A stretch of 61,578 nt of DNA from an uncultured Clostridia bacterium. Lineage in GTDB: Bacteria > Bacillota > Clostridia > TANB77 > CAG-508. The notes beneath the pieces are model-generated. The model was not told where the DNA came from. It made no database searches and saw only the letters and a list, made by a program, of their open reading frames with translations. The position numbers and the translations under genes were made by a program. The DNA lies in assembly GCA_944388705.1 (NCBI GenBank), contig CALXJU010000004.1, positions 1 through 61,578 on the forward strand, read 5' to 3'. This document shows positions 11,417 through 49,765 of the stretch, piece by piece (positions within the stretch are counted from its first letter, which is position 1; each line of letters opens with the position of its first letter).

Positions 11417-12001
11417 ATGATAGTTAAAAACCCTATTTTCGAAGTTTCAGCAGTTAGAGAAAATCAATATCCAAAAAATGGTTTACCAGAAATCGTTTTA
11501 GTTGGAAAATCTAATGTTGGAAAATCAAGTTTTATAAATACAATGCTCAATAGAAAAAAATTAGCAAGAACTAGTAGTGAACCAGGCAAAACTCGTCAAC
11601 TTAATTTTTATAATATTGACAACTTATTTTATTTTGTAGACTTACCTGGTTATGGTTATAGTAAAATGTCTAAACAAGAACAACTTAAGGTTGGAAATTT
11701 TATAGAATATTATTTAAAAAATAGACAAGAAATTTGCTTAATTATCTTTTTAGTTGATATTAGACATGACCCTACTTCAAATGATTTTTTAATGTATGAT
11801 TATGTTATTAGAAGTGGTCTGCCTTGTATGATTTTAGCTAATAAGGCTGATAAAATTGCTAAAACTAAGGTAGATGATTATGTTAAAAATATTCAAAAAC
11901 AACTTAACCCAATTGGAGATATAACTACTCTTCCATTTTCTTCTGAAAGAAAAGTTTATAGTGACGAAGTCTGGAAAATAATTGAAAAACATATTATATA
12001 A
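11417..12001 (+). CDS. engB: ribosome biogenesis GTPase YsxC/EngB
   Basis: G1 GKSNVGKSS, G3 DLPGYG, G4 NKADK; 194 aa. Confidence 0.9.
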   Translation: MIVKNPIFEVSAVRENQYPKNGLPEIVLVGKSNVGKSSFINTMLNRKKLARTSSEPGKTRQLNFYNIDNLFYFVDLPGYGYSKMSKQEQLKVGNFIEYYLKNRQEICLIIFLVDIRHDPTSNDFLMYDYVIRSGLPCMILANKADKIAKTKVDDYVKNIQKQLNPIGDITTLPFSSERKVYSDEVWKIIEKHII

Positions 12002-12196
12002 GCTTAGAGATAAATATATAAAAAACATTACAACATTTTGGATAAGCTAAGATTTTCGAAGAAATTATAAATAAAAACGATGAGCCGCTTTCAATATGAA
12101 ATTGAACATCCCTCATCGTTTTTAATTAATAATTTCTATCTCAAACCTTAGATATACAAAATGTTTTCATTTATTTTATATATTTATCACTAAGCT
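12001..12196. repeat. 196-bp imperfect palindrome filling the whole engB/DUF951 convergent intergenic region
   Basis: Left arm AGCTTAGAGATAAATATATAAAA... and the reverse complement of the right arm, AGCTTAGTGATAAATATATAAAA..., match at 22 of 23 outer positions and at roughly 70-75% over 84/85 nt. Confidence 0.8.
12073..12123. terminator. bidirectional terminator at the palindrome centre
   Basis: AAAAACGATGAG/CTCATCGTTTTT 12-bp stem with an inner TTCAAT/ATTGAA stem and A/T runs on both sides. Confidence 0.65.
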
Positions 12197-12373
12197 TTAT
12201 CTAATTTTTTTTGTAATTATTTTCAATGCCTTAGGTCTTTCTAGAACAACAATATGTCCACAACCTTGGCATTTTAATTTAAAATCAACACCAATTCTAG
12301 TAATTTCCCATAAGTTACTTCCACAAGGATGGGCTTTCTTTGTTTTTACTATATCACCTATTTGATAATCCAT
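12197..12373 (-). CDS. DUF951 family small protein (YyzM-like), 58 aa; absent from the ORF track
   Basis: Hand translation: MDYQIGDIVKTKKAHPCGSNLWEITRIGVDFKLKCQGCGHIVVLERPKALKIITKKIR. The HPCG...C-x2-C-x-H pattern is typical of DUF951. The ATG lies 1 nt after the gltX stop. Confidence 0.8.
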   Translation of the reverse strand: MDYQIGDIVKTKKAHPCGSNLWEITRIGVDFKLKCQGCGHIVVLERPKALKIITKKIR

Positions 12374-12374
12374 A

Positions 12375-14024
12375 CTATTTCTCCATTTCTTTTATGGCTT
12401 TTTGAAATCTATTAATTACATTTTCTTTTCCTAAAACTTTCATAATTTCATACATATCTGGTGTATTTGTTCTTCCTGTTAAAGCAACTCTAAGAACTGT
12501 GCTTACATCTCCGACATGTGCTTTATACATGTCTGGATTTGCTTTAAATTCTTTTACTTCTTTTGCATATCCCATTTCTCCAGCAAGTTCTTTAATTTTG
12601 TCAAACCATGTTTGCTTGTCATCATTTTCATCATAATATTTTTCTATATATAAATTTAATATTTTTTCTATACTTTCTTTATCTGAAATTACTTGATATG
12701 GATATTCTTCGAAATTGTCATCATACATATATTTTATATTTTGTTTTACTTCTGACCATTTTGAAATATCTTTTCTAGGTTTTTTATTTCCTCTTTCAAT
12801 TCCAAGAACTTTTAGTGAATATTCTTTATCTTTTAACATATCTACTAATTCTTTATCATATTTTTGAGCCCATTCTAAAGATTTTTCATAAACTTCTTCT
12901 GCTGTCATTTTTGATATTACTGTTTTTCCTATATCAAGTAATTTTACCATATCAAACAATGCTCCACTTACACTCATTTTATTTAATTGAAAATCAAATT
13001 CTTCGATTGGTTTATCTGGATTTGCTCTTCTCCAATTTTCAAATGTTGAATTAGCTATATTTAATAAATATTCTTTTACAGCATTTACCGGTATTCCTTC
13101 TTCTTTATAATATGATACTGCCGCTTCTGGGTCTTTTCTTTTACTTAATTTACGTTTGTTTCCATTATCATTTTTCATGATTGGTGATATATGTGCATAT
13201 TTTGGTGCCTTAAATCCTAATTCATGGAATAATTGTAAATGTAATGGTACAGACGATAACCATTCATCACTTCTTATTACATGTGTTGTTCTCATCAAAT
13301 GGTCATCAACAGCATGTGCGAAATGATATGTAGGCAATCCATCAGCTTTTATTATTACTATATCTTGGTCATTTTCTGGAAAATCTACATTTCCTTTTAT
13401 TACATCTTTATGTTTTATTTTTCTATCTTCTCTTCCTGGTGATTTAAATCTAATTATATAGTTTTCACCATTTTTTATTTTTTCTGCCATTTCTTCTACT
13501 GTTAAATTTCTACATTTTGCCCATACTCCATAATATCCTGGTCTTATTTTAGCATTTTCTTGTTTTACTCTTCTTTCTTCATCATCTTCTGGAGTACAGA
13601 AACATGGATATGCTTTTCCTTGTTCTAATAAATATTTTGCATATGCCTGATATATTTCTTTTCTTAATGATTGTTTATATGGTCCATATTTTCCTATTTC
13701 CTCTGTATCTGATATCATTCCTTCATCTGGTGCCATATCGAAATCTTTTAATGAGTTTACAATATCTGTTACTCCATTTTCTATTTCTCTTTTTTGATCT
13801 GTATCTTCTATTCTTAAGAAAAATACTCCTCCTGTTTTTCTTGAAGCTTCTATTGCTACTAATGCTTGATATAAGCCTCCTATATGTACAAATCCAGTAG
13901 GACTTGGAGCAAATCTTGATACGATTGCTCCCTCTGGTAAGTTTCTCTCTGGATATTTTTCTTCATAATATGATATTTCCTTTGCATCTGGAAATATTAA
14001 ATCAGCCAACTCTTTATAATTCAT
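12375..14024 (-). CDS. gltX: glutamyl-tRNA synthetase
   Basis: Class I motifs PSPTGFVHIGG (HIGH) and KLSKRK (KMSKS), plus RIEDTD. Confidence 0.9.
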   Translation of the reverse strand: MNYKELADLIFPDAKEISYYEEKYPERNLPEGAIVSRFAPSPTGFVHIGGLYQALVAIEASRKTGGVFFLRIEDTDQKREIENGVTDIVNSLKDFDMAPDEGMISDTEEIGKYGPYKQSLRKEIYQAYAKYLLEQGKAYPCFCTPEDDEERRVKQENAKIRPGYYGVWAKCRNLTVEEMAEKIKNGENYIIRFKSPGREDRKIKHKDVIKGNVDFPENDQDIVIIKADGLPTYHFAHAVDDHLMRTTHVIRSDEWLSSVPLHLQLFHELGFKAPKYAHISPIMKNDNGNKRKLSKRKDPEAAVSYYKEEGIPVNAVKEYLLNIANSTFENWRRANPDKPIEEFDFQLNKMSVSGALFDMVKLLDIGKTVISKMTAEEVYEKSLEWAQKYDKELVDMLKDKEYSLKVLGIERGNKKPRKDISKWSEVKQNIKYMYDDNFEEYPYQVISDKESIEKILNLYIEKYYDENDDKQTWFDKIKELAGEMGYAKEVKEFKANPDMYKAHVGDVSTVLRVALTGRTNTPDMYEIMKVLGKENVINRFQKAIKEMEK

Positions 14025-18860: not shown

Positions 18861-19169
18861 TTATAAATTTTCTTTTTTCTTTCCAAAAGTAACTTCTTGG
18901 AATAAGAAATCTTTAACTTTAGTCCAAGTAACTTCTTGATATAAGAAATCATTTATTTCATCTTCAATTTTTTGTTGATATGGTGTAAGTTCAACTTTAA
19001 TTGGATAGAATAGAACTGATTTTAATTTGTTCCAAAATCCTACTTTTGCTGGTAAATTTGCACCAACATTTGCAACATTAGAAACATTTTCATTATTTCC
19101 GTTTACTACTCCAACATCTTCTGTTTTTACTCCTCCAAATACTCCTGGAACTTCTTCTATATTTGCCAT
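18861..19169 (-). CDS. hypothetical protein (102 aa) with an internal DFL(Y/F)QEVT(W/F) duplication
   Basis: ORF with AAAGGAGG RBS; upstream TTGATA-17 nt-TATAAA. Confidence 0.5.
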   Translation of the reverse strand: MANIEEVPGVFGGVKTEDVGVVNGNNENVSNVANVGANLPAKVGFWNKLKSVLFYPIKVELTPYQQKIEDEINDFLYQEVTWTKVKDFLFQEVTFGKKKENL

Positions 19170-19297
19170 AATAAATTCCTCCTTTGTAGTAATAATTCTC
19201 TTCTAACATATTTATATAATAATCTCCCAAAATTATCAAGTATTTTTGGAAATTTTTATATTAAATTTATATTACAATAATATTACAATTGTAACAT

Positions 19298-20587
19298 TTA
19301 TGCTAGGACAAAATCAATATCAGCATTAATAACTTCAACTTCTCTTAATATATTGTCTAAATTTTCATTAGTTTTATATTTCACTAATATATAATTTTGA
19401 GTATGACCTTTATAATATTCTTCATCTCTATCTTCAAATAAAACTTCAACTTTTTTCCCCATTAGACTTGCATTATATTCTTTTTGATTTTTATTAGATA
19501 AATCAATTAATATCTTACTACGTTGTTCTTTAATATTTCCATCAACTTGTTCTTTCATTTCTGCAGCTCTAGTTCCTTTTCTCTTTGAATATGGAAAAAC
19601 ATGCATTTTATAAAATTTAATTTCTTTTAAAAATTCAAAAGTTTTATTAAATTCCTCTTCTGTCTCTCCAGGAAATCCTACGATTACATCAGTAGTAAGA
19701 ATCACATCATCATAATACTTACGTAATCTTTGAACAATTTCTCTAAATTCTTGAGTAGTGTATTTTCTATTCATTCTTTTTAAAGTTTCATCACAACCAC
19801 TTTGTAATGATAGATGAAAATGGTGACACATCTTATCTAATTTTGTCAATCTTTGTACAAATTCTTCTGTTATAATTTTAGGCTCTAATGAACCTAATCT
19901 TATTCTTTGTATTCCATCTATATCATTTAAATTTTCCAAAAGTTCTATTAAGCCATTTTCATTGTTAAAATCTCTACCATATGATGAAATATGTATTCCT
20001 GTTATTACAACCTCTTTAATTCCTTTTTGAGCGATTTTTTTGATTTCTTTTATTATCTCTTCAGGTCGTCTACTTCTTACTCTACCTCTTGCATATGGAA
20101 TTATACAATATGAACAAAATTGATTACATCCATCTTGAATTTTTATAACTGCTCTAGTCTTTTCTGTATAAGTAATTTGACCCATCTCAGAAAATTCTTT
20201 TTGCATTCCAATATCATCTATTTCTACTATTTTTTCTTTATTGTTTATGAATTCTTCCACATATTTGACTATATCTTTTTTTTCTGTATTACCTAATACT
20301 ATATCTATTTCTGGCATTTCTTCCAATTCTTCTTTTGATACTTGTGCATAACAGCCTGTTGCAACAATTATAGCATTCTTATTTTTGTCTTTTACTTTTC
20401 TTAATTCATGTCTTGATTTTCTATCAGATATATTTGTTACTGTACATGTATTTACTACACATATATCTGATATATCATTATTCATATCTACTATTTCATA
20501 TCCTGCTTCTTTAAATTTTTGTATCATTGCATTTGTTTCATATTGATTTACTTTACACCCTAATGTATAAAAACTTACTTTTTTCAT
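19298..20587 (-). CDS. mtaB: tRNA t6A37 methylthiotransferase MtaB (radical SAM)
   Basis: MKKVSFYTLGCKVNQYE N-terminus, CNQFCSYC radical-SAM cluster motif and a C-terminal TRAM-like region. Confidence 0.85.
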   Translation of the reverse strand: MKKVSFYTLGCKVNQYETNAMIQKFKEAGYEIVDMNNDISDICVVNTCTVTNISDRKSRHELRKVKDKNKNAIIVATGCYAQVSKEELEEMPEIDIVLGNTEKKDIVKYVEEFINNKEKIVEIDDIGMQKEFSEMGQITYTEKTRAVIKIQDGCNQFCSYCIIPYARGRVRSRRPEEIIKEIKKIAQKGIKEVVITGIHISSYGRDFNNENGLIELLENLNDIDGIQRIRLGSLEPKIITEEFVQRLTKLDKMCHHFHLSLQSGCDETLKRMNRKYTTQEFREIVQRLRKYYDDVILTTDVIVGFPGETEEEFNKTFEFLKEIKFYKMHVFPYSKRKGTRAAEMKEQVDGNIKEQRSKILIDLSNKNQKEYNASLMGKKVEVLFEDRDEEYYKGHTQNYILVKYKTNENLDNILREVEVINADIDFVLA

Positions 20588-20600
20588 TCATATCCCTTCT

Positions 20601-21482
20601 TTATAATGTTGCTCCTATTATTCCTGCATCATTTTTAAATTTTGCATGTTTAATTATTATATCATCTCTTTTATTAAATAGCAAGTTTCCACTTAATAAG
20701 GCTTTTTTTAGAGGCTCTTTTAATATATCTTCATATTCTGCAAAACTTCCTCCTATACATATTGCTTCTGGTTCAAATATATTTATTATATTTGAAATTC
20801 CTATACTTAAATCTTCTATATAATTATTGATTATATATTTTAATCTTGGTTCTTCACTGTTTTCCTTTAAAAAACTTTTTATTGTATTTCCATCTATTGT
20901 TCCTAAATTGAATTCTTTTGCAATTTTTTCTTTAAATCTTTTAAAACTTGCATATGTTTCAAAACAACCTCTTTTTCCACAATTACACATTATTCCGTTT
21001 TTTTGTATTATTGTATGGCTAAATTCAAATCCTGGAACGTTTTGTGCTTCTAAGAGTTTACCATCAAATATTACTGCTCCACCAATTCCTGTTCCTATAC
21101 ATAAAAATATACTATTTTTATATTCTGCCAATTCTCCATATTTTTGTTCTGCAAGTGCTGCACATTTGGCATCATTTCTCAATCTCATTGGTAATTTAAG
21201 AATACCTTCAAGTTTTGACACAATATCATAATTTTCTATTCCTAAATTTACTGCTTTAATTATTTTATTATTAGAAATTGTACCAGGTACTGCCATTCCA
21301 ATTTCATCTACTTCATTTGTTAATTGCATCTGCATTACTTTTTCTATTACAAATTCTTCTATCTGTTTTTCTATATTAGTTTTTTCTACTATATATTTTT
21401 CTTCTTTACATATGATATTTCCTTTTTCATCTACTACACCAATTCCTATATGACTTCCACCTAAGTCAATTCCTATTTTCAT
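20601..21482 (-). CDS. glcK: ROK family sugar kinase (glucokinase-like)
   Basis: MKIGIDLGGSHIGIGVVD N-terminus and the zinc motif CNCGKRGCFETYAS. Confidence 0.8.
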   Translation of the reverse strand: MKIGIDLGGSHIGIGVVDEKGNIICKEEKYIVEKTNIEKQIEEFVIEKVMQMQLTNEVDEIGMAVPGTISNNKIIKAVNLGIENYDIVSKLEGILKLPMRLRNDAKCAALAEQKYGELAEYKNSIFLCIGTGIGGAVIFDGKLLEAQNVPGFEFSHTIIQKNGIMCNCGKRGCFETYASFKRFKEKIAKEFNLGTIDGNTIKSFLKENSEEPRLKYIINNYIEDLSIGISNIINIFEPEAICIGGSFAEYEDILKEPLKKALLSGNLLFNKRDDIIIKHAKFKNDAGIIGATL

Positions 21483-21496
21483 TTTTTCCCTCCTAA

Positions 21497-21600
21497 TTTT
21501 AAAAGATTTTATATATTACTATGTAATAAGGTCAAGACCCCCGACGAAGACCCAGAATATGTTTTGACCATGGAATAGTAATATATAAAATATTTTAAAA
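21497..21600. repeat. family B palindromic element, copy B1
   Basis: Outer arms of 26 nt (TTTTAAAAGATTTTATATATTACTAT and its complement) pair at 25 of 26. Inner stem is GGTCAA/TTGACC. Loop is GACCCCCGACGAAGACCCAGAATATGTT. Confidence 0.85.
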
Positions 21601-21612
21601 ATACTATGCAAA

Positions 21613-21645
21613 AAGGTATATAACTTTCTTGCAGTCATATACCTT
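21613..21645 (-). terminator. terminator after pilC
   Basis: AAGGTATAT/ATATACCTT stem with T-runs on both strands. Confidence 0.6.
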
Positions 21646-21659
21646 CTTTTTTGCTTTTA

Positions 21660-23003
21660 TTAATTTAGATATGCATCGAATAAGAAACTTCCCATGTATA
21701 CTTGAATTACTGGTACTAATACTACACATACGAAGAATATCAATACTATACCAACAATCGAGTATGCAATCTCTGGCATTACTTTCATAATTCTTTGAAT
21801 TGAATTATCTATATCCATATCCATATATTCTAATAATTTTCCTAACATTTCTGTTAAATCTGTCTGCATTCCTATTTTTAACATCTCTGTTGTCATAGGT
21901 GAGCATAATCCTGATTTTTCAAATGGGTCAATCCATGAATAACCTGTAAGCATATTATTTATTGAAGTTTCTACTATTGATAGCATAACATAATTATTTA
22001 CAACATTTTTACTTACTTCAAGAGCATCTTGAATTCTCATACCATTTTCCATATTTAAATGCATTGCTTTCATTAATCTTGAAAAATCTAGTGAAAATAT
22101 CAATTTTCCAAATATAGGCATTGTATATTTAAAATAATGGAAATTATATTTTCCTTTTGGAGTATTAATATAGAATAATATTCCTCCAACTATTCCAATG
22201 ATGACTAATGTAGGTATATACCAATATTTCATTGCCAATTTTACAAATTCTTGGAACCATAGTGTAATAGCTGGTAACTGTGTTTCTGTACCTAATTCAT
22301 CAAATAGATTTTGAATTTGTGGTATTGCAAATAATGTTCCTCCTATTAATAATATAAATATTATTACAAATTGCAAAACATTTGGTATAATAATACCTTT
22401 TATTCTTTTAGTTATTTTATCATTATCTTCAAGATATGTTACTGCTTGGCCTAATGCATTTGTTAAAGAACCTGATAATTCTCCTACTTTTATCATATTT
22501 ATGTATATATATGGAAATATATCAGCATAATATTCCATTGTTGTATACATATATTCTCCGGCTTCAACTCCTGCTAGTATATCTTCTAAAACTCCTTTTA
22601 GTGTAATATTTTCAGTGCTTTGTATGATTGTACTTAATGCATGAATATTATTGAAATTTGCCTTTTTTAGTAAATAGAAATTTTCTGTAAATATTATTAT
22701 ATCTCTAACTTTTACTTTCTCGGTTGCTGCTAAATATAAATTAATTTTTTCTATTCCTGATAATTGCTTTACATTCTGTCTTGTATTTACTTGTGTTGTA
22801 TTTACATTTTTTAATACATCTTGTATATTTGTAATATTTTTCTTCTTTTTTACTTGTCCTTTATATGCAACCTGAATTACTTCTATTGGAGTTATTCCAT
22901 TATTTTTTAGTTTTTTTACTAGTGTCTGTTTATTAGCTTCTTCTACTTTATTTTTTACAATCAAGCCCTTATCAGTTACTGCTCTATAAACATATACTGG
23001 CAT
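21660..23003 (-). CDS. pilC: type IV pilus platform protein PilC (GspF family)
   Basis: 447 aa, two GspF-like repeats and three TM segments. Confidence 0.85.
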   Translation of the reverse strand: MPVYVYRAVTDKGLIVKNKVEEANKQTLVKKLKNNGITPIEVIQVAYKGQVKKKKNITNIQDVLKNVNTTQVNTRQNVKQLSGIEKINLYLAATEKVKVRDIIIFTENFYLLKKANFNNIHALSTIIQSTENITLKGVLEDILAGVEAGEYMYTTMEYYADIFPYIYINMIKVGELSGSLTNALGQAVTYLEDNDKITKRIKGIIIPNVLQFVIIFILLIGGTLFAIPQIQNLFDELGTETQLPAITLWFQEFVKLAMKYWYIPTLVIIGIVGGILFYINTPKGKYNFHYFKYTMPIFGKLIFSLDFSRLMKAMHLNMENGMRIQDALEVSKNVVNNYVMLSIVETSINNMLTGYSWIDPFEKSGLCSPMTTEMLKIGMQTDLTEMLGKLLEYMDMDIDNSIQRIMKVMPEIAYSIVGIVLIFFVCVVLVPVIQVYMGSFLFDAYLN

Positions 23004-23027
23004 TTTTTTCTCCTTTCATTCTGTTTT

Positions 23028-24140
23028 TTAATTCTTTTGCTCATTTCCCATTTTTATACGTAATTGCATTATTGTTCTATTTAATGTCTCTATATTTTTT
23101 TCTTCTACTTGTATTTTTGCTTGTTCAAGTGTTATTTTATTTTCTACAAATAATTTTGCAATTGAATTTATTAAACTTATACTTCCTTTATCTTGTCCAC
23201 TTTGTATAGCATCTTCAATCTCTGATACACTTATTTTTTCTTTTCTCATAACACCTGCTACTACATTATCAACTACCATTACTTCTGGTACTAATTCTAG
23301 CTTTCCTGAAGTTCCAACTAATAATCTTTGTGATATTACAAGTTTTAATAATGCTGATAATAAATATTTTATTTGCATTTGGTCTCTTACATCATAGAAG
23401 TTTATCATTCTGTCTATTGTTTCTGCACATGATTTTGTATGTAATGTTCCTATTACTAAATGTCCTGATTCTGCCATTTCTATTGCTGCTTCCATTGTAA
23501 CTTTATCTCTAATCTCTCCTATTACTAGTATGTCACAGTCTTCTCTTAATGCATTTTTTACACCATCATGATATGTTAAACAATCCATTCCTTCTCCTAC
23601 TTCTTTTTGTACTATTATCGAATTATGTGATGTATGTTTATATTCTATTGGGCTTTCTAGTGATAATATCTTTTTGTTTTGTGTTTCATTTATATGATTT
23701 ACTAATGCATTTAATGTTGTTGATTTACCAGAGTTTGTTTTTCCTGTTACTAATATTAATCCTTGTGGCTGATAAGTCATTCTTCTTACTATATCAGGAA
23801 CTCCTAAGTCTTCATATTTAGGTAATTCATTTTTTATAATTCTCATTGTACATACTGGCACTCCACCTGAATATGATATATTTACCCTTAAACGAATTCC
23901 ATTATACTCATATGAAGTATCCAATTTTTTTGTTTCATTAAATACATGATCTTTATCTACATTTCCTTTTATAACTGTATCATATAAATCATACATGTCT
24001 TCATCTTTTAGTACTTGTGAACCTTCTAATTCTACTAAAGATCTTGTAATTCTAAGCATTGGTTTTAATCCTGATATCCAATGTATATCTGATGCATCTT
24101 TTTCTATTGCTTTTTCTATGACTTGGTCTATATTAATCAT
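23028..24140 (-). CDS. pilT: type IV pilus retraction ATPase PilT
   Basis: 370 aa with Walker A GKTNSGKST and the GEIRD and GHLVIGTLHT motifs. Confidence 0.85.
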   Translation of the reverse strand: MINIDQVIEKAIEKDASDIHWISGLKPMLRITRSLVELEGSQVLKDEDMYDLYDTVIKGNVDKDHVFNETKKLDTSYEYNGIRLRVNISYSGGVPVCTMRIIKNELPKYEDLGVPDIVRRMTYQPQGLILVTGKTNSGKSTTLNALVNHINETQNKKILSLESPIEYKHTSHNSIIVQKEVGEGMDCLTYHDGVKNALREDCDILVIGEIRDKVTMEAAIEMAESGHLVIGTLHTKSCAETIDRMINFYDVRDQMQIKYLLSALLKLVISQRLLVGTSGKLELVPEVMVVDNVVAGVMRKEKISVSEIEDAIQSGQDKGSISLINSIAKLFVENKITLEQAKIQVEEKNIETLNRTIMQLRIKMGNEQKN

Positions 24141-24161
24141 ATTTTTTCCTCCTTCAAATGA

Positions 24162-25799
24162 CTAAAACAATAATATTTTTCTATTTAATTCATCTAGATT
24201 TGTTATTCCTTCTAGTACTTTATTTATTCCATCTACACATAGTGGTTTATATTTTCCTAATAATGCTTGTTTTTTTATTTCAATACTTGAAGCTCCATTC
24301 ATTATTAATTCTTTTATATCATCATCTATATCTAATATTTCAAATATTCCTATTCTGTCATAATATCCTGTATTATTACAATAATCACATCCGATTGCTT
24401 CATATGTTTTTATGCCTTTTAAGTCAAATTCTGTATTATACCTTTTTCCTATTTTTTCTATTATATTTTTTTCTTCTTGTGTAAATTCTCTTTCTCTTCT
24501 ACATTTTGGACATAATTTTCTTACTAACCTTTGTGATATACTTGTTGCTAATGTACTTGCTATATCATAATCTGGTAATCCTATTTTTCTTAATCTTGTT
24601 ATTACTTCTACTGCATCAATTGTATGTATTGTAGATAATACATAATGTCCTGTTTGTCCAGATTGTATTGCTATTTCTGCTGTTTCTTTATCACGAATTT
24701 CTCCTACTAGTATTATATCTGGATCTTGTCTTAATACTGTTCTTAATGCATCAGAAAATGTTGTCTTTACATCAACTTCTATTTGATTTAACCCATCTAT
24801 ACGAATTTCTACCGGATCTTCTATTGTTGTTATATTTATTTCTGGTCTATTTAAATAATCTATAAAACTATATAATGTTGTTGTTTTACCTTCTCCTGTT
24901 GGTGCTGCTATTACTGTTATACTATTTCTTTTATTTATACTTTTATTTAATTCTGCTTCTGTTCCAGGATATCCTAATTCAAATATATTTCTTATATTTG
25001 AATTTTTCTTTAATAATCTTAATACAAATTTTTCTCCATATACATTTTTCTGTGAAGATACACGTATGTTATAATCGTCATACATCAATATTCTACCATC
25101 TTGTGATTCTTGTTTTTCTTGATGCATATTTGATATTGCTTTCAATCTTCCTATTATTTGTGGTTGTTTATCTTTTGGTAAAGATGTTGCTGTAAATAAT
25201 TCTCCATCTATTCTATATCTTACTCTTACTTCATCTTTTTCTGGTTCTATATGTATATCACTTGCTCTTTTTTCCATAGCTGTTCTTATTACTGAATCTA
25301 CTATTTGTGTAATATTATCATCTTGTCCAAGTCTTCTCATATCTTTATCAGCTGTTCCACCTAGATTTCTTAGAGCTACTTCTATTAGATTTCCAAATGT
25401 TATATATGGTTCTATTACTAACCCTTTATTTAACATTAATAATCTAATTGTATCTATATTTCTTGCATTTGTAGTATCTGCAAAACATACTTTTATCTTA
25501 CCATTTTCTATATCAAAAGGTATTGCTTTATTTCTTCTTGCTATTTCTAATGAAATATAATTAAGTACATCTATTCTTATTTTTTCTGGTGATAATATTA
25601 TACCTTTTACTCCTATAATTTCTCCTATTGCTTCTATTAATACTGTTGAATCACATACATTTAATTCATTTAGTATTTCTCCTATTTTTTTGCTTGAGTC
25701 TCTTTTTTGTTCCTGTAAAGCCATTTCTATATCTGCTTCTGTAACTATTCCTCTTTTTACTAGTTCAATTCCTATTGGTTGACGTTTTCTTACATCCAT
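24162..25799 (-). CDS. pilB: type IV pilus assembly ATPase PilB (GspE family) with N-terminal T2SSE_N/MshEN-like domain
   Basis: Walker A PTGEGKTTT, plus GEIRD and tetracysteine CPKC...CDYC motifs. Start placed at the second ATG (25799), 7 nt after GGAGG; the ORF extends to 25805. Confidence 0.85.
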   Translation of the reverse strand: MDVRKRQPIGIELVKRGIVTEADIEMALQEQKRDSSKKIGEILNELNVCDSTVLIEAIGEIIGVKGIILSPEKIRIDVLNYISLEIARRNKAIPFDIENGKIKVCFADTTNARNIDTIRLLMLNKGLVIEPYITFGNLIEVALRNLGGTADKDMRRLGQDDNITQIVDSVIRTAMEKRASDIHIEPEKDEVRVRYRIDGELFTATSLPKDKQPQIIGRLKAISNMHQEKQESQDGRILMYDDYNIRVSSQKNVYGEKFVLRLLKKNSNIRNIFELGYPGTEAELNKSINKRNSITVIAAPTGEGKTTTLYSFIDYLNRPEINITTIEDPVEIRIDGLNQIEVDVKTTFSDALRTVLRQDPDIILVGEIRDKETAEIAIQSGQTGHYVLSTIHTIDAVEVITRLRKIGLPDYDIASTLATSISQRLVRKLCPKCRREREFTQEEKNIIEKIGKRYNTEFDLKGIKTYEAIGCDYCNNTGYYDRIGIFEILDIDDDIKELIMNGASSIEIKKQALLGKYKPLCVDGINKVLEGITNLDELNRKILLF

Positions 25800-25815
25800 T
25801 TTCATTCCTCCAATC

Positions 25816-26226
25816 TTATTTAGCTACAGTAAATGTAGAACTATAATATTTATCTTGTATTTTCATATTGACATATATTTCTTTCGTATCTTCATTATAG
25901 TAAAATTCACAAAATTCTATATCTTTTGCTATTTTTACTTTCCCTCTATATATGCTTCCATTTTGATAGGTATATTGATTTTGTGTTTGCGAAAATATTA
26001 TATAATTACTTTCACATGTTTCTACTTCATTTCCTTCTATATTTATTTCATCAGTAAAATAACTATTAAATTTTAAGTATTCTGCATTAGCAGCTGTATT
26101 TTCTTCGGCATTGTTTACATTTCTATAAAAGTAAGTTATTATTCTACCTATAAGAAGAACTACAACTGTTAGTGCAATTACATATATCATTATAGATGTT
26201 AGTGTTACACCTTTTTCTGACTTCAT
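25816..26226 (-). CDS. pilin-like protein (minor pilin candidate), Ser at +5
   Basis: MKSEKG/VTLTSIMIYVIALTVVVLLIG prepilin-like leader. Start at the second ATG behind GGAGG; the ORF extends to 26238. Confidence 0.6.
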   Translation of the reverse strand: MKSEKGVTLTSIMIYVIALTVVVLLIGRIITYFYRNVNNAEENTAANAEYLKFNSYFTDEINIEGNEVETCESNYIIFSQTQNQYTYQNGSIYRGKVKIAKDIEFCEFYYNEDTKEIYVNMKIQDKYYSSTFTVAK

Positions 26227-31254: not shown

Positions 31255-31698
31255 ATGAAACCATTAGATTCAAAAAAAGAGTATCAGAATTATGTGGAAC
31301 AAAAGTCTCCAAATTCTCCTATATGGAAGAATTGTTTTAATGCTTTTTGGGTTGGAGGTCTTATCTGTTCTATCGGCCAAATTATAATGAGTATATGTAA
31401 ATCTAAAGGATTTTCTGTAGAAATTTCTGGAACTATAGTTTCCATAACTTTAATTGCTCTTAGCGCTTTTCTTACTGGACTTAATATTTTCAATAAAATC
31501 GGAAAATTTGCAGGTGCTGGTTCTTTAATTCCTATAACTGGTTTTGCAAATTCGATTGTTTCTCCTGCTATGGAATATAAATCAGAAGGATATGTCATGG
31601 GTGTTGGTGGAAAAATGTTTACTGTTGCTGGTCCTGTTCTTGTTTTTGGTATTTCTGCTTCAATTATTGTGGGACTTATTTATTTTATATTCATTTAG
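31255..31698 (+). CDS. spoVAC: stage V sporulation protein AC
   Basis: 147 aa membrane protein (NAFWVGGLICSIGQ); adjacent to spoVAD and spoVAEb. Confidence 0.88.
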   Translation: MKPLDSKKEYQNYVEQKSPNSPIWKNCFNAFWVGGLICSIGQIIMSICKSKGFSVEISGTIVSITLIALSAFLTGLNIFNKIGKFAGAGSLIPITGFANSIVSPAMEYKSEGYVMGVGGKMFTVAGPVLVFGISASIIVGLIYFIFI

Positions 31699-31832
31699 GG
31701 AAATTTGGGGACGGTTCTCTTTTTTCCAAAAGGGAAATTTGGGGACGGTTCTTAAATTGCCAAAAAGGAAAAAAGAGAACCGTCCCCATTTTACCCAAAA
31801 GGAAAAATTGGGACAGACATTAAATTTGAAAG
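31698..31832 (+). repeat. family A repeat, copy A2 (two inverted plus two forward units) between spoVAC and spoVAD
   Basis: GGGAAATTTGGGGACGGTTCTC occurs twice, followed by GAGAACCGTCCCC and then TTGGGACAGAC...GAAAGG. The GGGGACGGTTCT/GAGAACCGTCCCC pair can form a hairpin. Confidence 0.85.
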
Positions 31833-43133: not shown

Positions 43134-45158
43134 TTATCTTACAAGTACTTTTTGTATTGTTCTAATTGCAATTTGTGGTAATACTTTTTGTTCTGTATTA
43201 TATACTGGCATTTCTTTTATTTTTAAATGATTATTTTTTTCAAGCCATACACTTAATAATCTTTCTGATAAAAATCCAAATATTCTTTTATCATAATCTG
43301 TATATTTTGAAATATCTACTCTTTTTTCTAATTCAAATAAAATGTCAAATAACCATTTATAGTATTCATCAAATATTTCTTTTCGAGAAATAAACATATT
43401 GTATAAATATAATTTTCTTCCATTTGCAATTTTATCAAATGCTTCTATATATTCTGGATGTTTTTCTTGTATAATTTCTCTACATTTTTCAAAATCTTCT
43501 ATATGATGAAATTTCCCATATGCATTTTTTACAGTATATTTCACAATTCTTTCTTTTTCTGGTAGTATTATATCATATTTTTCTAATATTTCTTCTATAT
43601 CTTTTTTATTTAATATATTTTCTTTGCTATTATTGTTTTTCTTTTTAAAGAAATATCTTCTATAATGTGTAAGCCCTGTAATATCTGATTTGTCATTTTT
43701 CCATATCCAATATGCTGCTGTTAATTCACAAAAGTTTGGATTTTTTTCTGCTATATTGTCACCTGTGTTATCACGTACTTTTGTGAAACTTTCTTTTTTC
43801 CCTACTTGTATTGGTGTATATATTTCTTCTTTTGGAAATTCTGCTTCTTTGTGTGATACTATGTAAACTTTGGAAAAAAAGGGGACGGTTCTCTTTTTTC
43901 CCTTTTGGCAAATTGGGGACGGTTCTCTTTTTTCCTTTTGGGCAAAAAGAGAACCGTCCCCTTTTTTCCCTTTTTGCTCATATAGTTTTATATATTCTTG
44001 AAATTTTAATCTTTTATCATATTTTTTAGATGCTTGCAAACATTGTTCTGTTTTTTTAGGTTTGCCTTTTAAATCTTTAACAATTTTTAACACAGAGTCT
44101 ACATCTCCTTGTTCTACAACAAATCCCCATTCTTTATCAACACTTTCTACACTTCCACCTGTTTTATATGTAATTATTGGTGTTCCACATGCTATTGATT
44201 CTAAATTTGTTGTTGGAAAGTTTTCTTCATATGTAGGATTGAAAAATATATCTGCAGTTGTATAAAGTTCTGCTAATTGTTCAATATTTTCTGTTCTTGA
44301 TATTCCTATTATATTTTTAGGTAATTTTTTTAATTGTCTTTTATTCAAACCTACTAATACTATTTGGAAATCATCACTTAGTTTTTCTGATAATCTTATA
44401 AATGATTCTAATCCTTTTCTTTTTTCCCAAACACTTGCAACTCCAAGTATTATAAATTTATTTTCAATATTATGTTTTTTTCTGAAATCTCCTTTTGTTG
44501 GTTTGAAGTTTTGAAGATTTATTCCATTGTTTATTACAACTACTTCTTTATCTTTTAAATATGATTGTTTTACTAAATCTGCTAACCATTGTGATGGTGT
44601 TACTAATGTTAAGTTTTTTATATTATTAAATAATCTTTTTTTCTTTTCATAATTTATTTTTGAGTTATCAAATATTAAACTTGGTGGATATGTTGTTTTT
44701 TGTGGACATTTTTCACATCCTGTTTTCCATTTATCACATTTTGCATAATCAAAATATGTGCAATGTCCTGTTATTGCCCAACAATTATGCATTGTGTAAA
44801 TTACAGGTTTATCTATTTTTGCTAAATATTCTAATAGTACTTCTATATTTATATAATATCCTAATAAACTATGTAATTGTATTATATCTGGGTCATATTC
44901 TTCTATTTTTTTGATTAGTTTTTTTGTTGCATGTGTTGATAAAAAAGCACTATTATCAAATATCATAGATATTCCTATGTGAAATAAGTTATTTATTTTT
45001 CCACATATTTTTATTGTTTTTACACCTTCTGGTGCTCCTCTTCTTCCATATGCAATTATTCCTTCATGTCCATTTTCTTCTAATACATTATATAAGTCTA
45101 CTGCTATTTTTCCAGTACTACAATTTCCACATACTGCATTTATTTGTAAAACTTTCAT
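43134..45158 (-). CDS. bifunctional glycosyltransferase: GT4 domain fused to a DUF4422 domain through a repeat-encoded linker
   Basis: MKVLQINAV... GT4 (about 400 aa, ENFPTTNLESIACGTPIITY), linker KGKKGDGSLFAQKEKREPSPICQKGKKRTVPFFS, then a DUF4422-like domain (VYIVSHKEAEFPKEEIYTPIQVG). Start at ATG 45158 behind AAAGGAGAAG. Confidence 0.75.
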   Translation of the reverse strand: MKVLQINAVCGNCSTGKIAVDLYNVLEENGHEGIIAYGRRGAPEGVKTIKICGKINNLFHIGISMIFDNSAFLSTHATKKLIKKIEEYDPDIIQLHSLLGYYINIEVLLEYLAKIDKPVIYTMHNCWAITGHCTYFDYAKCDKWKTGCEKCPQKTTYPPSLIFDNSKINYEKKKRLFNNIKNLTLVTPSQWLADLVKQSYLKDKEVVVINNGINLQNFKPTKGDFRKKHNIENKFIILGVASVWEKRKGLESFIRLSEKLSDDFQIVLVGLNKRQLKKLPKNIIGISRTENIEQLAELYTTADIFFNPTYEENFPTTNLESIACGTPIITYKTGGSVESVDKEWGFVVEQGDVDSVLKIVKDLKGKPKKTEQCLQASKKYDKRLKFQEYIKLYEQKGKKGDGSLFAQKEKREPSPICQKGKKRTVPFFSKVYIVSHKEAEFPKEEIYTPIQVGKKESFTKVRDNTGDNIAEKNPNFCELTAAYWIWKNDKSDITGLTHYRRYFFKKKNNNSKENILNKKDIEEILEKYDIILPEKERIVKYTVKNAYGKFHHIEDFEKCREIIQEKHPEYIEAFDKIANGRKLYLYNMFISRKEIFDEYYKWLFDILFELEKRVDISKYTDYDKRIFGFLSERLLSVWLEKNNHLKIKEMPVYNTEQKVLPQIAIRTIQKVLVR
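43872..43979 (-). repeat. family A repeat, copy A3, lying inside the coding sequence
   Basis: GGGGACGGTTCTCTTTTTTCC occurs twice, followed by GAGAACCGTCCCC on the plus strand. The units match A1 and A2. Confidence 0.85.
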
Positions 45159-45186
45159 ATCTTCTCCTTTTTTTATGTTTATACTT

Positions 45187-45277
45187 GTATTTATATATAT
45201 TACTATTGAATAAGCAAAGACCCCCGACGAAGACCCCAAATATGTTTTTGCTATGAAATAGTAATATATATAAATAC
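45187..45277. repeat. family B palindromic element, copy B2
   Basis: Perfect 20-bp arms GTATTTATATATATTACTAT/ATAGTAATATATATAAATAC. Inner stem AGCAAA/TTTGCT. Loop GACCCCCGACGAAGACCCCAAATATGTT. Confidence 0.85.
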
Positions 45278-45290
45278 ATAAAAATATAAA

Positions 45291-47150
45291 TTATATATTA
45301 ATTTTTATTTCACACTGTTCTGAAAATAAATCTAAGTTTGGATTAAAATATGGGTCTCCTTTTTCTAATTCATCTTTCCATTTACTTTCGAACAATTTAA
45401 TTTCTCCATTAAATCTCTCTAATTTTTCTGGTGTATCTTCATAACCTCTTGACTTAGATTCATAATGAAATAATCTAGCAAAAGGTGTATAAACAACTAA
45501 CTTTTGAAGTTTACGTATTTTCATACAGAAATCCACATCATTAAATGCTACTTTAAATTTTTCGTCAAGTCCTTCTACTTTTTCATATAGTTCTTTTTTG
45601 GTCATAAGGCAAGCTGCTGTAACTGCTGAATAGTTATTAATTACTGCCACTCTTCCAAAATAGCCTGGATTTTTATCAGCAATTAATCTGTTTACATGTC
45701 CTGCAATTCCACCCATTCCAACTACAACACCTGCATGTTGAACTGTTTTATCACTATAAAGTAGTTTTGCTCCTACTATTCCAACATCTTCTCTTTGACA
45801 TATTGATAGCATTTCTTCAAGCCAATCTTTTGTTATTACTTTTATATCATTATTTAGTAGCAATAAATATTCACCATTTGCATATGTAACTCCAAAATTG
45901 TTTATTTTTGAATAATTAAATTCTCCTTCATATTTTATAATTTTTGCAAATGACTTTATTTTCTCATAATATTTAAATGTACTTTTTTTGGTACTATTAT
46001 TTTCTACAATTATAATTTCATAATTTTTATATGTTGATTTTAATATTGAATTTATTGCTCTTTTTAAGTATTTTACAGAGTCTTTATTTGGTATTATTAT
46101 TGATATTAATGGTTCTCCTATTACTTTATATTTAATTCTATATGAACCTAATGGTTTTATACTTTCTACTTTTTCAATAGGAAGTTCTAACCTTTTACAA
46201 TGTTCTTCTATTGCTCTTCTTCCTGCTTCTATTGCATAATTTTTTGTTTCCATATTTTGAGCAGTTGAAGTAGAGTGTATTCTCCAATGATATAATATAT
46301 CTGGAATATGTTCTATTTTATTAGTGTTTTCTGTAATTCTTAATATTAAATCATAATCTTGTGCACCATCAAATTCTTTTCTAAAGCCTCCAATTTTTTC
46401 AACTAATGTTTTTCTTATTACACTAAGATGACAAATATAGTTATTGCTTCTTAAAAAATCTGGTGAAAAGTCTGGTTTGAAAAATGGATAAAATCTATTT
46501 TCTACATTTCCTTCAAATTTATCTTCATCACTATATATAAAGTCTGTTTCTGGTTTTTCATTTAATTTTTTCACAACTTCATTTAATGCATTTGGTGCAA
46601 TTATATCATCATGGTCAACTAATGCTAGAAATTCTCCTGAAGCCATTTGTATTGCTTCATTTGAATTTTCTGATATTCCTTTATTTTCTTCTAGTCTTTT
46701 ATATTTTAATCTTTTATCATTTATATTTTTCACATATTCTAATTGTGTTTCACTAGCATCTACAAGGCAAACTTCCCAATTTGTATAAGTTTGCTCTTGT
46801 AGACTTTTTATATAATCTATGAAAAATTCTTTTGGTGTATTATATAATGGTGTTATTATACTTATTAATGGCTCATATTTAAATTCTTTATTTTCTTTTA
46901 TTGTAGCTTTTTCAGAAATCCATCTATTATATTTTTCTTCTTGATATTCTTTACTTTCAGGTACTACTAATTTATAAAATGAATATTTAAAACCTTTTAA
47001 AAATCCTATTTCTTTTACTTTTTTGATAAACATTTTTCTGTTTTCTTTGTTTTTTAACATTCTATAAATATATTGTATTGCTCTTCTTCTAATACTTCCT
47101 ATTGGCATTAAAAAATTTATAATAGAATTTTTTATGTTTGTTATTTTCAT
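45291..47150 (-). CDS. two-domain GT2 glycosyltransferase
   Basis: Two GT-A modules (ISIITPLYNTPKEF...DHDD and ISIIIPNKDSVKYL...NNDI). Confidence 0.75.
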   Translation of the reverse strand: MKITNIKNSIINFLMPIGSIRRRAIQYIYRMLKNKENRKMFIKKVKEIGFLKGFKYSFYKLVVPESKEYQEEKYNRWISEKATIKENKEFKYEPLISIITPLYNTPKEFFIDYIKSLQEQTYTNWEVCLVDASETQLEYVKNINDKRLKYKRLEENKGISENSNEAIQMASGEFLALVDHDDIIAPNALNEVVKKLNEKPETDFIYSDEDKFEGNVENRFYPFFKPDFSPDFLRSNNYICHLSVIRKTLVEKIGGFRKEFDGAQDYDLILRITENTNKIEHIPDILYHWRIHSTSTAQNMETKNYAIEAGRRAIEEHCKRLELPIEKVESIKPLGSYRIKYKVIGEPLISIIIPNKDSVKYLKRAINSILKSTYKNYEIIIVENNSTKKSTFKYYEKIKSFAKIIKYEGEFNYSKINNFGVTYANGEYLLLLNNDIKVITKDWLEEMLSICQREDVGIVGAKLLYSDKTVQHAGVVVGMGGIAGHVNRLIADKNPGYFGRVAVINNYSAVTAACLMTKKELYEKVEGLDEKFKVAFNDVDFCMKIRKLQKLVVYTPFARLFHYESKSRGYEDTPEKLERFNGEIKLFESKWKDELEKGDPYFNPNLDLFSEQCEIKINI

Positions 47151-48705: not shown

Positions 48706-49632
48706 TTAATCCTCATTTCTCTTGAATTGATTTAAAATTAATTCATATTGTTGTTTGTGTTTTTTTACTATTACATCTAATATTACACCACATATAAATG
48801 ATAATATTGCTGATAACATTATAAATCCTCCAACTATTAATGTTGGAAATCTTAATACAAGTCCTGTTTTAAAATAATCATTAAATACTGGTATTACAAA
48901 TATTAATGCTATTATTGTAAGTATTATTGCAACTATATTAAAGAAGAAAAATGGTTTATATTCTTTAAATAGTGTTGCTATCATTTTTAATACTTTAAAT
49001 CCATCTTTATATGTGTTTAATTTTGATACACTTCCTTCTGGTCTATCTCTATATGTTACTGGCACTTCTTGTATTAGAAAATTCTTATCTACTGCATGTA
49101 TTGTCATTTCTGTTTCTATTTCAAATCCTTTTGATAATACTGGATATGTTTTTACAAATTCATAACTAAATGCTCTATATCCTGTCATTATATCTTTTAT
49201 TTTGTTTTTAAATAATTTGTTTATTAAAAATCTTACTATTCTATTTCCAAAATTGTGGAATGGTCTTTTATTTTCTGTAAAATATGTTGATGATAGTCTA
49301 TCTCCTACTACCATATCTGCTTTTCCTTCTAATACTAGAGCACACATTTTTCTAGCATCTTCTGCTGGATATGTGTCATCTCCATCTACCATTAAATAGC
49401 AGTCTGCGTCTATTTGTCTGAACATACTGCGAATTACATTTCCTTTTCCTTGTCTATATTCATATTTAACTATTGCTCCTGCTTTTCTTGCTATTTCATC
49501 ACTTCCATCTGTTGAGTTATTGTCATATACATATATATCTGCTTCTGGCAATTCTTTTTTGAAGTCTTTTACTACTTTTTCTATTGTTTTACTTTCATTA
49601 TAACATGGTATTAATACTGCTATTTTTGACAT
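48706..49632 (-). CDS. GtrB/CsbB-like polyprenyl-phosphate glycosyltransferase (GT2 with two C-terminal TM segments)
   Basis: IAVLIPCYNES...MVDGDDTY followed by two C-terminal TM helices. Confidence 0.75.
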   Translation of the reverse strand: MSKIAVLIPCYNESKTIEKVVKDFKKELPEADIYVYDNNSTDGSDEIARKAGAIVKYEYRQGKGNVIRSMFRQIDADCYLMVDGDDTYPAEDARKMCALVLEGKADMVVGDRLSSTYFTENKRPFHNFGNRIVRFLINKLFKNKIKDIMTGYRAFSYEFVKTYPVLSKGFEIETEMTIHAVDKNFLIQEVPVTYRDRPEGSVSKLNTYKDGFKVLKMIATLFKEYKPFFFFNIVAIILTIIALIFVIPVFNDYFKTGLVLRFPTLIVGGFIMLSAILSFICGVILDVIVKKHKQQYELILNQFKRNED

Positions 49633-49672: not shown

Positions 49673-49765
49673 TTTGAAGAAATATATAACTATTCCATAG
49701 CCGAAACATAGCTGGGGTTTTCGTACCAGGGTCGGCTTTATTACATAGTTATATATTTCTTCAAA
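49673..49765. repeat. family B palindromic element, copy B3 (inverted relative to B1 and B2)
   Basis: Perfect 21-bp arms TTTGAAGAAATATATAACTAT/ATAGTTATATATTTCTTCAAA. Inner stem AGCCGA/TCGGCT. Loop (reverse complement) CCCTGGTACGAAAACCCCAGCTATGTT. Confidence 0.85.

Follow-up and report, generated by a model that had tools for sequence, protein, structure and literature searches.

A clade-restricted family of palindromic hairpins with covarying stems as a candidate hairpin-dependent mobile repeat in gut Clostridia

Why would a bacterial chromosome carry intergenic hairpins whose stems differ from copy to copy, stay complementary, and enclose a shared loop? The question is raised by a 61.6-kb stretch of DNA from an uncultured, spore-forming Clostridia bacterium (contig CALXJU010000004.1; the whole stretch is called the window here), in which three copies of one palindromic element, B1, B2 and B3, lie between genes. 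An original prediction, made from the sequence of the window, read the compensatory changes among these copies as selection on a hairpin and offered a miniature inverted-repeat transposable element (MITE), a transcriptional insulator or processing site, or a protein-binding hairpin as possible roles. We propose that family B is a non-autonomous repeat that is copied or mobilised as a folded single strand and whose effects at the RNA level are secondary; we give this reading a probability of roughly 0.6. By kind, the family belongs with MITEs and with the REP/REPIN/BIME, Correia, RUP and ERIC elements. Among the roles first offered, the MITE fits best, with dozens of clade-limited copies, filled and empty orthologous sites, and no preference of orientation. 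The elements are also MITE-like in being shorter than 300 bp and non-coding, with terminal inverted repeats, many dispersed copies and differences in occupancy between species.

A hairpin family with compensated stems

The minimal B unit is ~94 nucleotides (nt), and whole elements measure 94–105 nt. A 21-nt arm is followed by an internal loop of 6–7 nt, a 6-bp inner stem, a C-rich apical loop of ~28 nt, the stem complement, an internal loop of 5 nt and the arm complement; no open reading frame (ORF) is present, and the inverted arms span 21–26 nt. B1 occupies positions 21497–21600 with its loop in the plus sense. Its 26-nt left arm (21497–21522) pairs with the complementary right arm (21575–21600) at 25 of 26 positions, with one G/A mismatch. 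Between the arms, the internal loop GTAATAA (21523–21529) faces ATGGA (21570–21574), the inner stem is formed by GGTCAA (21530–21535) and TTGACC (21564–21569), which are alignment columns 44–49 and 78–83, and the 28-nt type 1 apical loop GACCCCCGACGAAGACCCAGAATATGTT (21536–21563) has 54% G+C against 26.5% in the window. B2, likewise in the plus sense, spans 45186–45278 and has the inner stem AGCAAA/TTTGCT (45213–45218/45247–45252) and a loop (45219–45246) nearly the same as that of B1. B3 (49673–49765) has its loop in the minus sense, arms paired at 21 of 21 positions (49673–49693/49745–49765), the inner stem AGCCGA/TCGGCT (49699–49704/49732–49737), and a 27-nt type 3 loop (49705–49731; CCCTGGTACGAAAACCCCAGCTATGTT in the sense direction) that is related to the B1/B2 loop. 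The one architecture predicted for the three copies is confirmed with its coordinates and sequences, save that the B2 arms, described as 20 of 20 pairs starting at 45187, pair just as perfectly over 21 of 21 positions (45186–45206/45258–45278).

A repeat search places the three copies with the longest inverted repeats in the window (B1 as I3, B2 as I6 and B3 as I5). They fold with energies of −30.7, −33.1 and −39.3 to −41.1 kcal/mol; relative to dinucleotide shuffles the z-scores run from −5 to −10, and none of 200 such shuffles folded as stably as the real copies. A covariance model built from 44 distinct copies and run with its filters off finds exactly B1, B2 and B3 in the window, at 122.5, 103.2 and 98.6 bits. 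The opposite strands of the same elements score 41–43 bits, and the next-best distinct sites are generic hairpins at no more than 29.5 bits.

Across the 44-copy alignment, 90.2% of cells in both helices are paired, compared with 43–49% when the partners are slid by 1–3 columns. The covariation score of 0.281 was reached in none of 500 shuffles, which scored 0.098. The prediction of a multi-copy hairpin with compensatory change is borne out by strong double-sided changes in both helices (23 of 35 pairs). One-sided pairing intermediates are almost absent, and double changes from A-U to U-A are frequent. In the metagenome-assembled genome (MAG) CALXXZ01, one and the same loop occurs with the stem GCAAAG/TTTGC in five copies and with GCCAAG/TTGGC in at least five, indicating that compensated variants were amplified as sub-families. 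Mismatches are rare; with one invariant G/T position excluded, ~5 independent G·T and 4–5 A·C mismatches remain, a roughly even ratio that favours neither strand as the RNA.

Most copies share a 21-nt core arm, [C/G]AAAA(G/A)TT(T/A)ATATAT(T/A)ACTAT. The divergence of outer arms first described among B1–B3 is real within the window but does not extend to the family, and it is the window's copies that are atypical in the outer part of the arm. Against these variable stems, two features remain constant. One is the asymmetric internal loop, in which KDAATAA faces ATGRA; the other is a pair of C-rich pentamers in the apical loop (GACCY ... RRCCC) with (Y)AGMWATRTT after them. Between the pentamers, the sequence falls into at least four loop types, so the conserved loop of the original prediction holds for the pentamers and the 3′ motif, whereas the 5′ half varies by loop type. 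A short direct repeat, ATGGAATA, lies on both sides of the inner module and might mark it as a nested insertion of its own. Among the copies and their flanks, neither an outer palindrome lacking the inner module nor an inner module elsewhere was found.

The family extends well beyond the window and is confined to a narrow clade, with ~45 further copies. A scan of 185,579 species, one genome each, with the loop pattern ACCC-N3-4-ACGAARACCC-N4-TATGTT returned 46 loci, of which 45 are in uncultured gut Clostridia-type MAGs (six labelled Clostridia or Clostridium and one labelled Lachnospiraceae) and one is an archaeal chance match. Two of these genomes are rich in copies, CAKOXV01 with ~24 pattern loci and CALXXZ01 with ~14, and their counts come to at least 25 and at least 15 copies, respectively, spread over many contigs. 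An arms-only pattern run against a metagenome collection gave three B-like copies among the 120 matches listed, the other 117 being chance AT-rich palindromes; these three revealed the fourth loop type. The B1 region recurs in DNA sequencing runs, mostly from chicken-gut metagenomes. One CALXXZ01 copy (locus L010 in our numbering) is identical to B1 including its flanks, and B1, B2 and B3 all stand at the same places, without differences, in independent assemblies of the same species; the elements are therefore not assembly artefacts.

Rfam 15 at gathering thresholds returns only two tRNAs from the window and no family match for B, which rules out a known RNA family. In an E-value search of seven copy-bearing loci, we found only RNase P elsewhere and one sub-threshold match to a miRNA precursor. 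That match, to the plant family MIR8562 at L016 994–1194, reaches 70 bits against a gathering score of 211, appears on both strands, and is spurious, produced by the ~220-nt composite, AT-rich palindrome that surrounds the B copy in L016. A phage or virus origin finds no support in IMG/VR, which holds no match to the loop pattern and, for a looser pattern, a single chance match in a giant-virus MAG. A text search of the literature for the loop and the family-A core sequences gave no relevant paper, and the B family is undescribed by sequence.

Filled sites, exchanged modules and nested palindromes

Orthologous sites differ in occupancy between species. L044 has a B copy where L034 has an empty site with a spacer of ~13 nt, and the copy in L029 likewise faces an empty site in L031. 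Conversely, L031 carries a ~420-nt composite of B with other palindromic repeats at a site where L029 has only a terminator hairpin, and the composite in L018 takes the place of an ordinary terminator hairpin in L012. Two species (L022 and L033) share one filled site. At the B1 site, the window, L010 and strains whose adjacent ROK kinase is 92% identical all carry the element; at 75–77% ROK identity (L059–L061) B1 is absent, and the spacers of 57–95 nt hold ordinary hairpins. The comparison of insertion polymorphism suggested with the original prediction yields filled and empty sites between species but none within the species of the window. L010 is 100% identical to the window over pilC and B1 (window 21433–22930), while the genes on either side, compared over window 19100–25900, share only 84–94% protein identity; as a sequence pattern, this looks like a mosaic or a recently exchanged segment.

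The same site offers a view of how compensated stems may arise. In L057 (2374–2493) and L058 (2376–2495), the pilC-ROK spacer contains the outer arms of B1 around a B3-type inner stem and loop, GGCCGA ... GACCCTGGTACGAAAGCCCCAGCTATGTT ... TCGGCC. In L058 one arm carries an A-to-G change that the other arm does not compensate, and the position of the single mismatch in B1 is perfectly paired. As read from these sequences, the ~40-nt inner module at this site is one exchanged between paralogous copies. Since a whole inner module was swapped, at least part of the compensation is module replacement and not stepwise selection in place. We suggest that the covariation derives, at least in part and probably largely, from different amplified master copies and from exchange between copies. 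The original prediction argued from compensatory change to selection on a hairpin (RNA, cruciform or single-stranded DNA); for an RNA hairpin that argument is not upheld, given the random orientation, the lack of a G·U bias, the module swap and the scarcity of intermediates.

We propose that the mobilising or copying machinery would act on the folded single strand, in the simplest case single-stranded DNA at replication, and that the internal and apical loops would serve as its sequence determinants. Only variants whose arms still pair would be amplified. Combined with sequence exchange among copies and template switching inside the palindrome, this filter could generate covariation without selection at the level of the host, and inserted copies would then drift slowly. 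Copies lying inside the short spacers of co-directional clusters would be co-transcribed with their neighbours, and their perfect duplex of at least 21 bp may incidentally act as a determinant of RNase III cleavage or of stability.

B is also nested with two other palindromic repeat families. In CAKOXV01, it occupies the apex of a second, larger palindrome (the "shell") in 17–22 copies, and the 264-nt core of shell plus B has 93% mean identity among 17 of them. In one of ~22 composites (L043 969–1089), the B core is inverted relative to the shell, which is consistent with either arm-to-arm recombination (flip/flop) or a separate insertion event. At the orthologous L040 site the shell occurs without B and has the apex GAGGAATGTTCA-ATTTCAC-ATTGAAAGAGGC; a filled apex reads ...CACGTC-[B]-GGACTAAGTG.... 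The third family, with the core GGGGACGGTCC, flanks B as inverted doublets in 10 of 14 CALXXZ01 copies.

Both families are present in the window apart from B. A shell without B (12000–12197) lies between the convergent genes for a GTPase (11417–12001) and gltX (12375–14024), with outer arms AAGCTTAGAGATAAATATATAAAAAACATT... and their complement around an inner hairpin AAAACGATGAGCCGCTTTCAAT-ATGAAAT-TGAACATCCCTCATCGTTTT. Upstream of spoVAD, inverted, REP-like GGGGACGGTTCTC units with the core GGGGACGGTCC/GGACCGTCCCC represent the third family (31690–31804). Another GGGGACGGTTCTC copy (43863–43980) stands in frame inside the minus-strand ORF 43134–45158, whose 674-aa product has it exactly between GT4 domains (residues 18–379) and DUF4422 (430–642), where it encodes ...KGKKGDGSLFAQKEKREPSPICQKGKKRTVPFFS.... 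It may be an in-frame insertion like the Rickettsia palindromic elements, or the trace of a fusion of two genes.

The CAKOXV01 composites carry extra outer arms of at least 45 nt (~45–60 nt on each side of the 264-nt core) with 40% G+C. Identity of these arms between copies is 0.61 (0.55 when shuffled) and complementarity within a copy is 0.89; composites with copy-specific outer arms include L003, L008, L009, L011, L012, L014, L015, L027, L031, L034 and L037. Simple B copies show a copy-specific arm extension above the mismatched-flank control in 6 of 15 cases. The outer arms may originate from insertion into the apices of older palindromes, from outward growth by template switching, or from regeneration of one arm. 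They also invite an account without mobility or function, in which old palindromes have been kept perfect, or extended, by template switching and arm-to-arm conversion. The arm extensions and the strong complementarity within otherwise dissimilar composite arms agree with such an account, as do the near absence of one-sided intermediates and the frequent A-U to U-A double transversions. It leaves unexplained, however, the ~50 dispersed copies with near-identical cores (0.93 over the 264-nt composite core) and the lineage-specific sites, and at the orthologous B1 site single arm changes stand uncompensated and uncorrected. We regard it as very unlikely.

Varying stems around a conserved asymmetric internal loop and C-rich loop, combined with apex-in-apex nesting, point to structure-specific recognition by an enzyme. 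In a narrower form of the mobile-repeat proposal, which we hold to be doubtful, the B hairpin would be the recognition module of a structure-specific enzyme that mobilises single-stranded DNA, inserts at hairpin apices and regenerates one arm from the other. The internal loop and the paired C-rich pentamers would be read in the folded strand, and nested palindromes, self-complementary but copy-specific outer arms, and a near absence of uncompensated intermediates would follow. Alternatively, the loops could be the recognition features of a structure-specific DNA site, either for a recombinase acting on an attC-like folded strand or for a chromosome-organising protein. The preservation of KDAATAA/ATGRA and both pentamers while stems vary would suit such a site, as would an orientation independent of transcription and the exchange of modules between copies. 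Against it, copies are single and dispersed among housekeeping genes on many contigs, with no cassette arrays; GTTTTTG or GTTTTGA stands in place of the attC core GTTRRRY; no integrase lies beside the copies; and a copy that has lost most of its apical loop persists with arms and inner stem intact (L017 4284–4356; AAAGCC-ATAGATATGTT-TCGGCT). A role as a DNA site of this kind is distinctly unlikely, and identity with integron attC sites was rejected, the core being absent and the copies dispersed singly in either orientation.

Gene context, transcription and host function

The window is an ordinary chromosomal stretch with a type IV pilus cluster, serS, purA, gltX, RNase J, IMPDH, L20/IF3, SpoVAC/AD and a Glf/glycosyltransferase locus, and no transposase is among its genes. 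As first described, B1, B2 and B3 each lie between co-directional minus-strand genes, in spacers of 132–189 nt. The B1 spacer, 177 nt long, separates a pilC-like T2SSF gene (21660–23003, minus) from the ROK kinase gene (20601–21482, minus); the left arm is 14 nt from the ROK start codon and touches the ROK ribosome-binding site. B2 is flanked by a GT2 glycosyltransferase gene (45291–47150, minus) and the GT4/DUF4422 gene (43134–45158, minus), and B3 by genes for a 704-aa protein without an assigned function (49822–51936, minus) and a GT2 enzyme (48706–49632, minus), so that both spacers fall inside the glycosyltransferase cluster.

Such positions bring forward the main rival of the mobile-repeat reading, a cis-acting RNA hairpin under host selection. 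Such a hairpin would serve to end or attenuate transcription in both directions, to be processed by RNase III or to stabilise the 3′ end of an mRNA, and selection would keep both pairing and loop. Every copy is intergenic, in a spacer that looks transcribed, and adjoins at least one gene 3′ end, and the simple copies, counted by unique site, comprise 15 between co-directional genes, 6 between convergent genes and none between divergent genes. The hairpins are very stable, RNA contigs cover them, and one composite (L018) occupies the position of an ordinary terminator in L012. Yet large composites lie between divergent genes in four cases, occupancy differs between related species, and neither strand has an excess of G·U pairs. 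Orientation argues in the same direction. Copies occur either way round, as originally noted, and among those between co-directional genes the loop is sense in 15 and antisense in 13, a random distribution even though the asymmetric loops are the most conserved part of the element.

The consensus arm, which begins AAAAAG and ends CTTTTT with one G-C pair next to TTTTT, resembles a bidirectional terminator, but the window copies have no T-tract after the stem. A terminator scan of B1–B3 found no terminator-like site at the foot of the hairpins. Its sole match, at B2 45237–45217 (minus), is a weak, G-T-rich stem of nine pairs with three G-C pairs, situated inside the apical loop and followed by TGCTTATTCA. 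A Rho-independent terminator, with a G+C-rich stem and a T-tract directly after it, was accordingly rejected for the window copies. The pilC gene already has a separate terminator-like hairpin before B1. This hairpin (21609–21647, minus; repeat I12; AAGGTATATGAC...GTTATATACCTT, then TTTTT) immediately follows the stop codon of pilC, on the upstream side of B1, is kept in the 92%-related strains, and looks like pilC's own terminator.

Transcript data come from two chicken-gut metatranscriptomes, in which contigs enter each element from both flanking genes at similar depth (~7–14). These are assembled contigs that break off at the repeated core, and the depth there is the total for all copies. 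DNA carry-over is possible, and the contigs carry no information on transcript ends; they provide weak evidence for co-transcription without strong termination. With contig depth alike upstream and downstream, if only as weak evidence, and no terminator at the hairpin foot, neither the predicted insulator role nor a role as terminator finds support in the window copies. Taken together, an RNA hairpin under host selection is possible, though we consider it unlikely.

Promoter activity was a further suggestion for B1. TTGACC-N16/18-TAAAAT promoter-like motifs do occur there, one per strand with the minus-strand motif facing the ROK gene, and the 3′ half of the inner stem doubles as the −35-like hexamer. 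The outward promoters do not generalise: the motifs are no more frequent than in shuffled sequence, are missing from B2 and B3, and are lost in the 92%-related orthologues of B1, where GGCCGA/TCGGCC replaces the −35-like TTGACC. We therefore excluded a promoter as a feature of the family, the motif being specific to B1 and dependent on an inner stem that is not conserved. The motifs in B1 would be in keeping with an independent family of small RNA (sRNA) genes whose C-rich loop pairs with G-rich ribosome-binding sites, and the loop (ACCCCC ... ACCC) recalls the seed regions of C-rich Firmicute sRNAs, a resemblance we treat as a lead only. This is the least probable of the readings, and highly improbable: the promoter-like motifs are confined to B1 and rest on a stem not kept at the orthologous site, no terminator follows the hairpin in the window copies, half of the copies would expose the G-rich complement, and elements lie inside very short operon spacers.

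Several observations weigh against family B as a hairpin-dependent mobile repeat. No mobilising enzyme lies beside any copy or in the window. There is no parent insertion sequence (IS) or transposase within 4–8 kb of ~50 copies or in the window, and no RAYT (Y1 HUH transposase) gene in the stretches of up to 8 kb around copies. An all-against-all BLASTP of ORFs from 47 sources, aimed at a candidate transposase, revealed no protein family recurring beside the ~50 copies. The same searches speak against the possibility, raised with the original prediction, that the copies are termini of an IS element. Independent assemblies show no presence/absence polymorphism within the species of the window; the activity may be ancient, and the filled and empty sites do not distinguish gain from loss. 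No consistent target-site duplication or conserved flanking tetranucleotide surrounds the copies, and the filled/empty pairs are too diverged, and their flanks too AT-rich, for insertion boundaries to be placed. The absence of simple copies from divergent spacers could reflect a host function, as could the conservation of a G+C-rich loop in a genome of 26.5% G+C. That conservation is itself inflated, because the copies were gathered through the loop pattern: three extra copies found in flanks without the pattern (L016:3893, L035:5131 and L017:4284) all have variant or largely deleted loops.

Significance and relation to known repeats

If our interpretation is correct, B is a new interspersed-repeat family within a nested system of three families, in a poorly known, AT-rich clade of gut Clostridia. 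For annotation, B hairpins are not to be mistaken for terminators, sRNAs or riboswitches. Copies can serve as strain or lineage markers, and they are a source of assembly breaks, with both RNA and DNA contigs breaking at the repeated core. Insertion into short operon spacers, such as pilC-ROK and those of the glycosyltransferase cluster, could affect mRNA processing.

The REP/REPIN/BIME elements of Proteobacteria, mobilised by RAYT, an IS200/IS605-like HUH transposase, resemble B in being short intergenic palindromes in tens to hundreds of copies. In both, stems vary by compensated changes, no target-site duplication is obvious and most copies adjoin gene 3′ ends, and on our reading B, like them, would replicate as a hairpin; BIMEs also form mosaic or nested combinations with other repeat motifs. 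B differs in its AT-rich arms of 21–26 bp, in its Gram-positive Clostridia host clade, and in a large, sequence-conserved apical loop of 27–28 nt where the REPIN spacer is short and variable. It has no conserved GTAG-type 5′ tetranucleotide, the flanks outside the 21-nt arms being variable, and no RAYT/TnpA gene was found for it within the stretches of up to 8 kb around copies.

Correia elements of Neisseria (CREE/NEMIS) share with B a length of ~100–150 bp, inverted repeats of ~26 bp, and an intergenic position in either orientation. They are co-transcribed with neighbouring genes, some copies create promoters, and transcribed Correia hairpins are reportedly RNase III substrates (work attributed to De Gregorio, Mazzone and colleagues). 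Correia elements have an IHF site and produce a TA target duplication, whereas B showed no consistent TA duplication and no such site; they lack the conserved G+C-rich loop and covarying inner stem that B has.

RUP and BOX of Streptococcus pneumoniae, bcr1 of the Bacillus cereus group and ERIC/IRU are, like B, non-coding and clade-restricted elements of 100–150 nt with stable predicted hairpins. ERIC copies have been reported to differ by compensated substitutions. None has sequence similarity to B, and RUP is tied to the termini of IS630-Spn1, whereas B has no known parent IS. Integron attC sites, such as the Vibrio cholerae repeats, are imperfect palindromes of 60–140 nt that are very similar within a chromosome and are recognised as a folded single strand, with unpaired or extrahelical features, rather than by sequence. 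Unlike these, B stands outside cassette arrays in unfixed orientation, with no R″/R′ core (RYYYAAC/GTTRRRY) and no integron integrase nearby. IS1397 and ISKpn1 are full-length IS3-family elements with transposases, in contrast to the 94 nt of non-coding B; they nevertheless show that a mobile element can insert at the apex of a different palindromic repeat, which would give nesting like that of B in the shell or between GGGGACGGTCC pairs.

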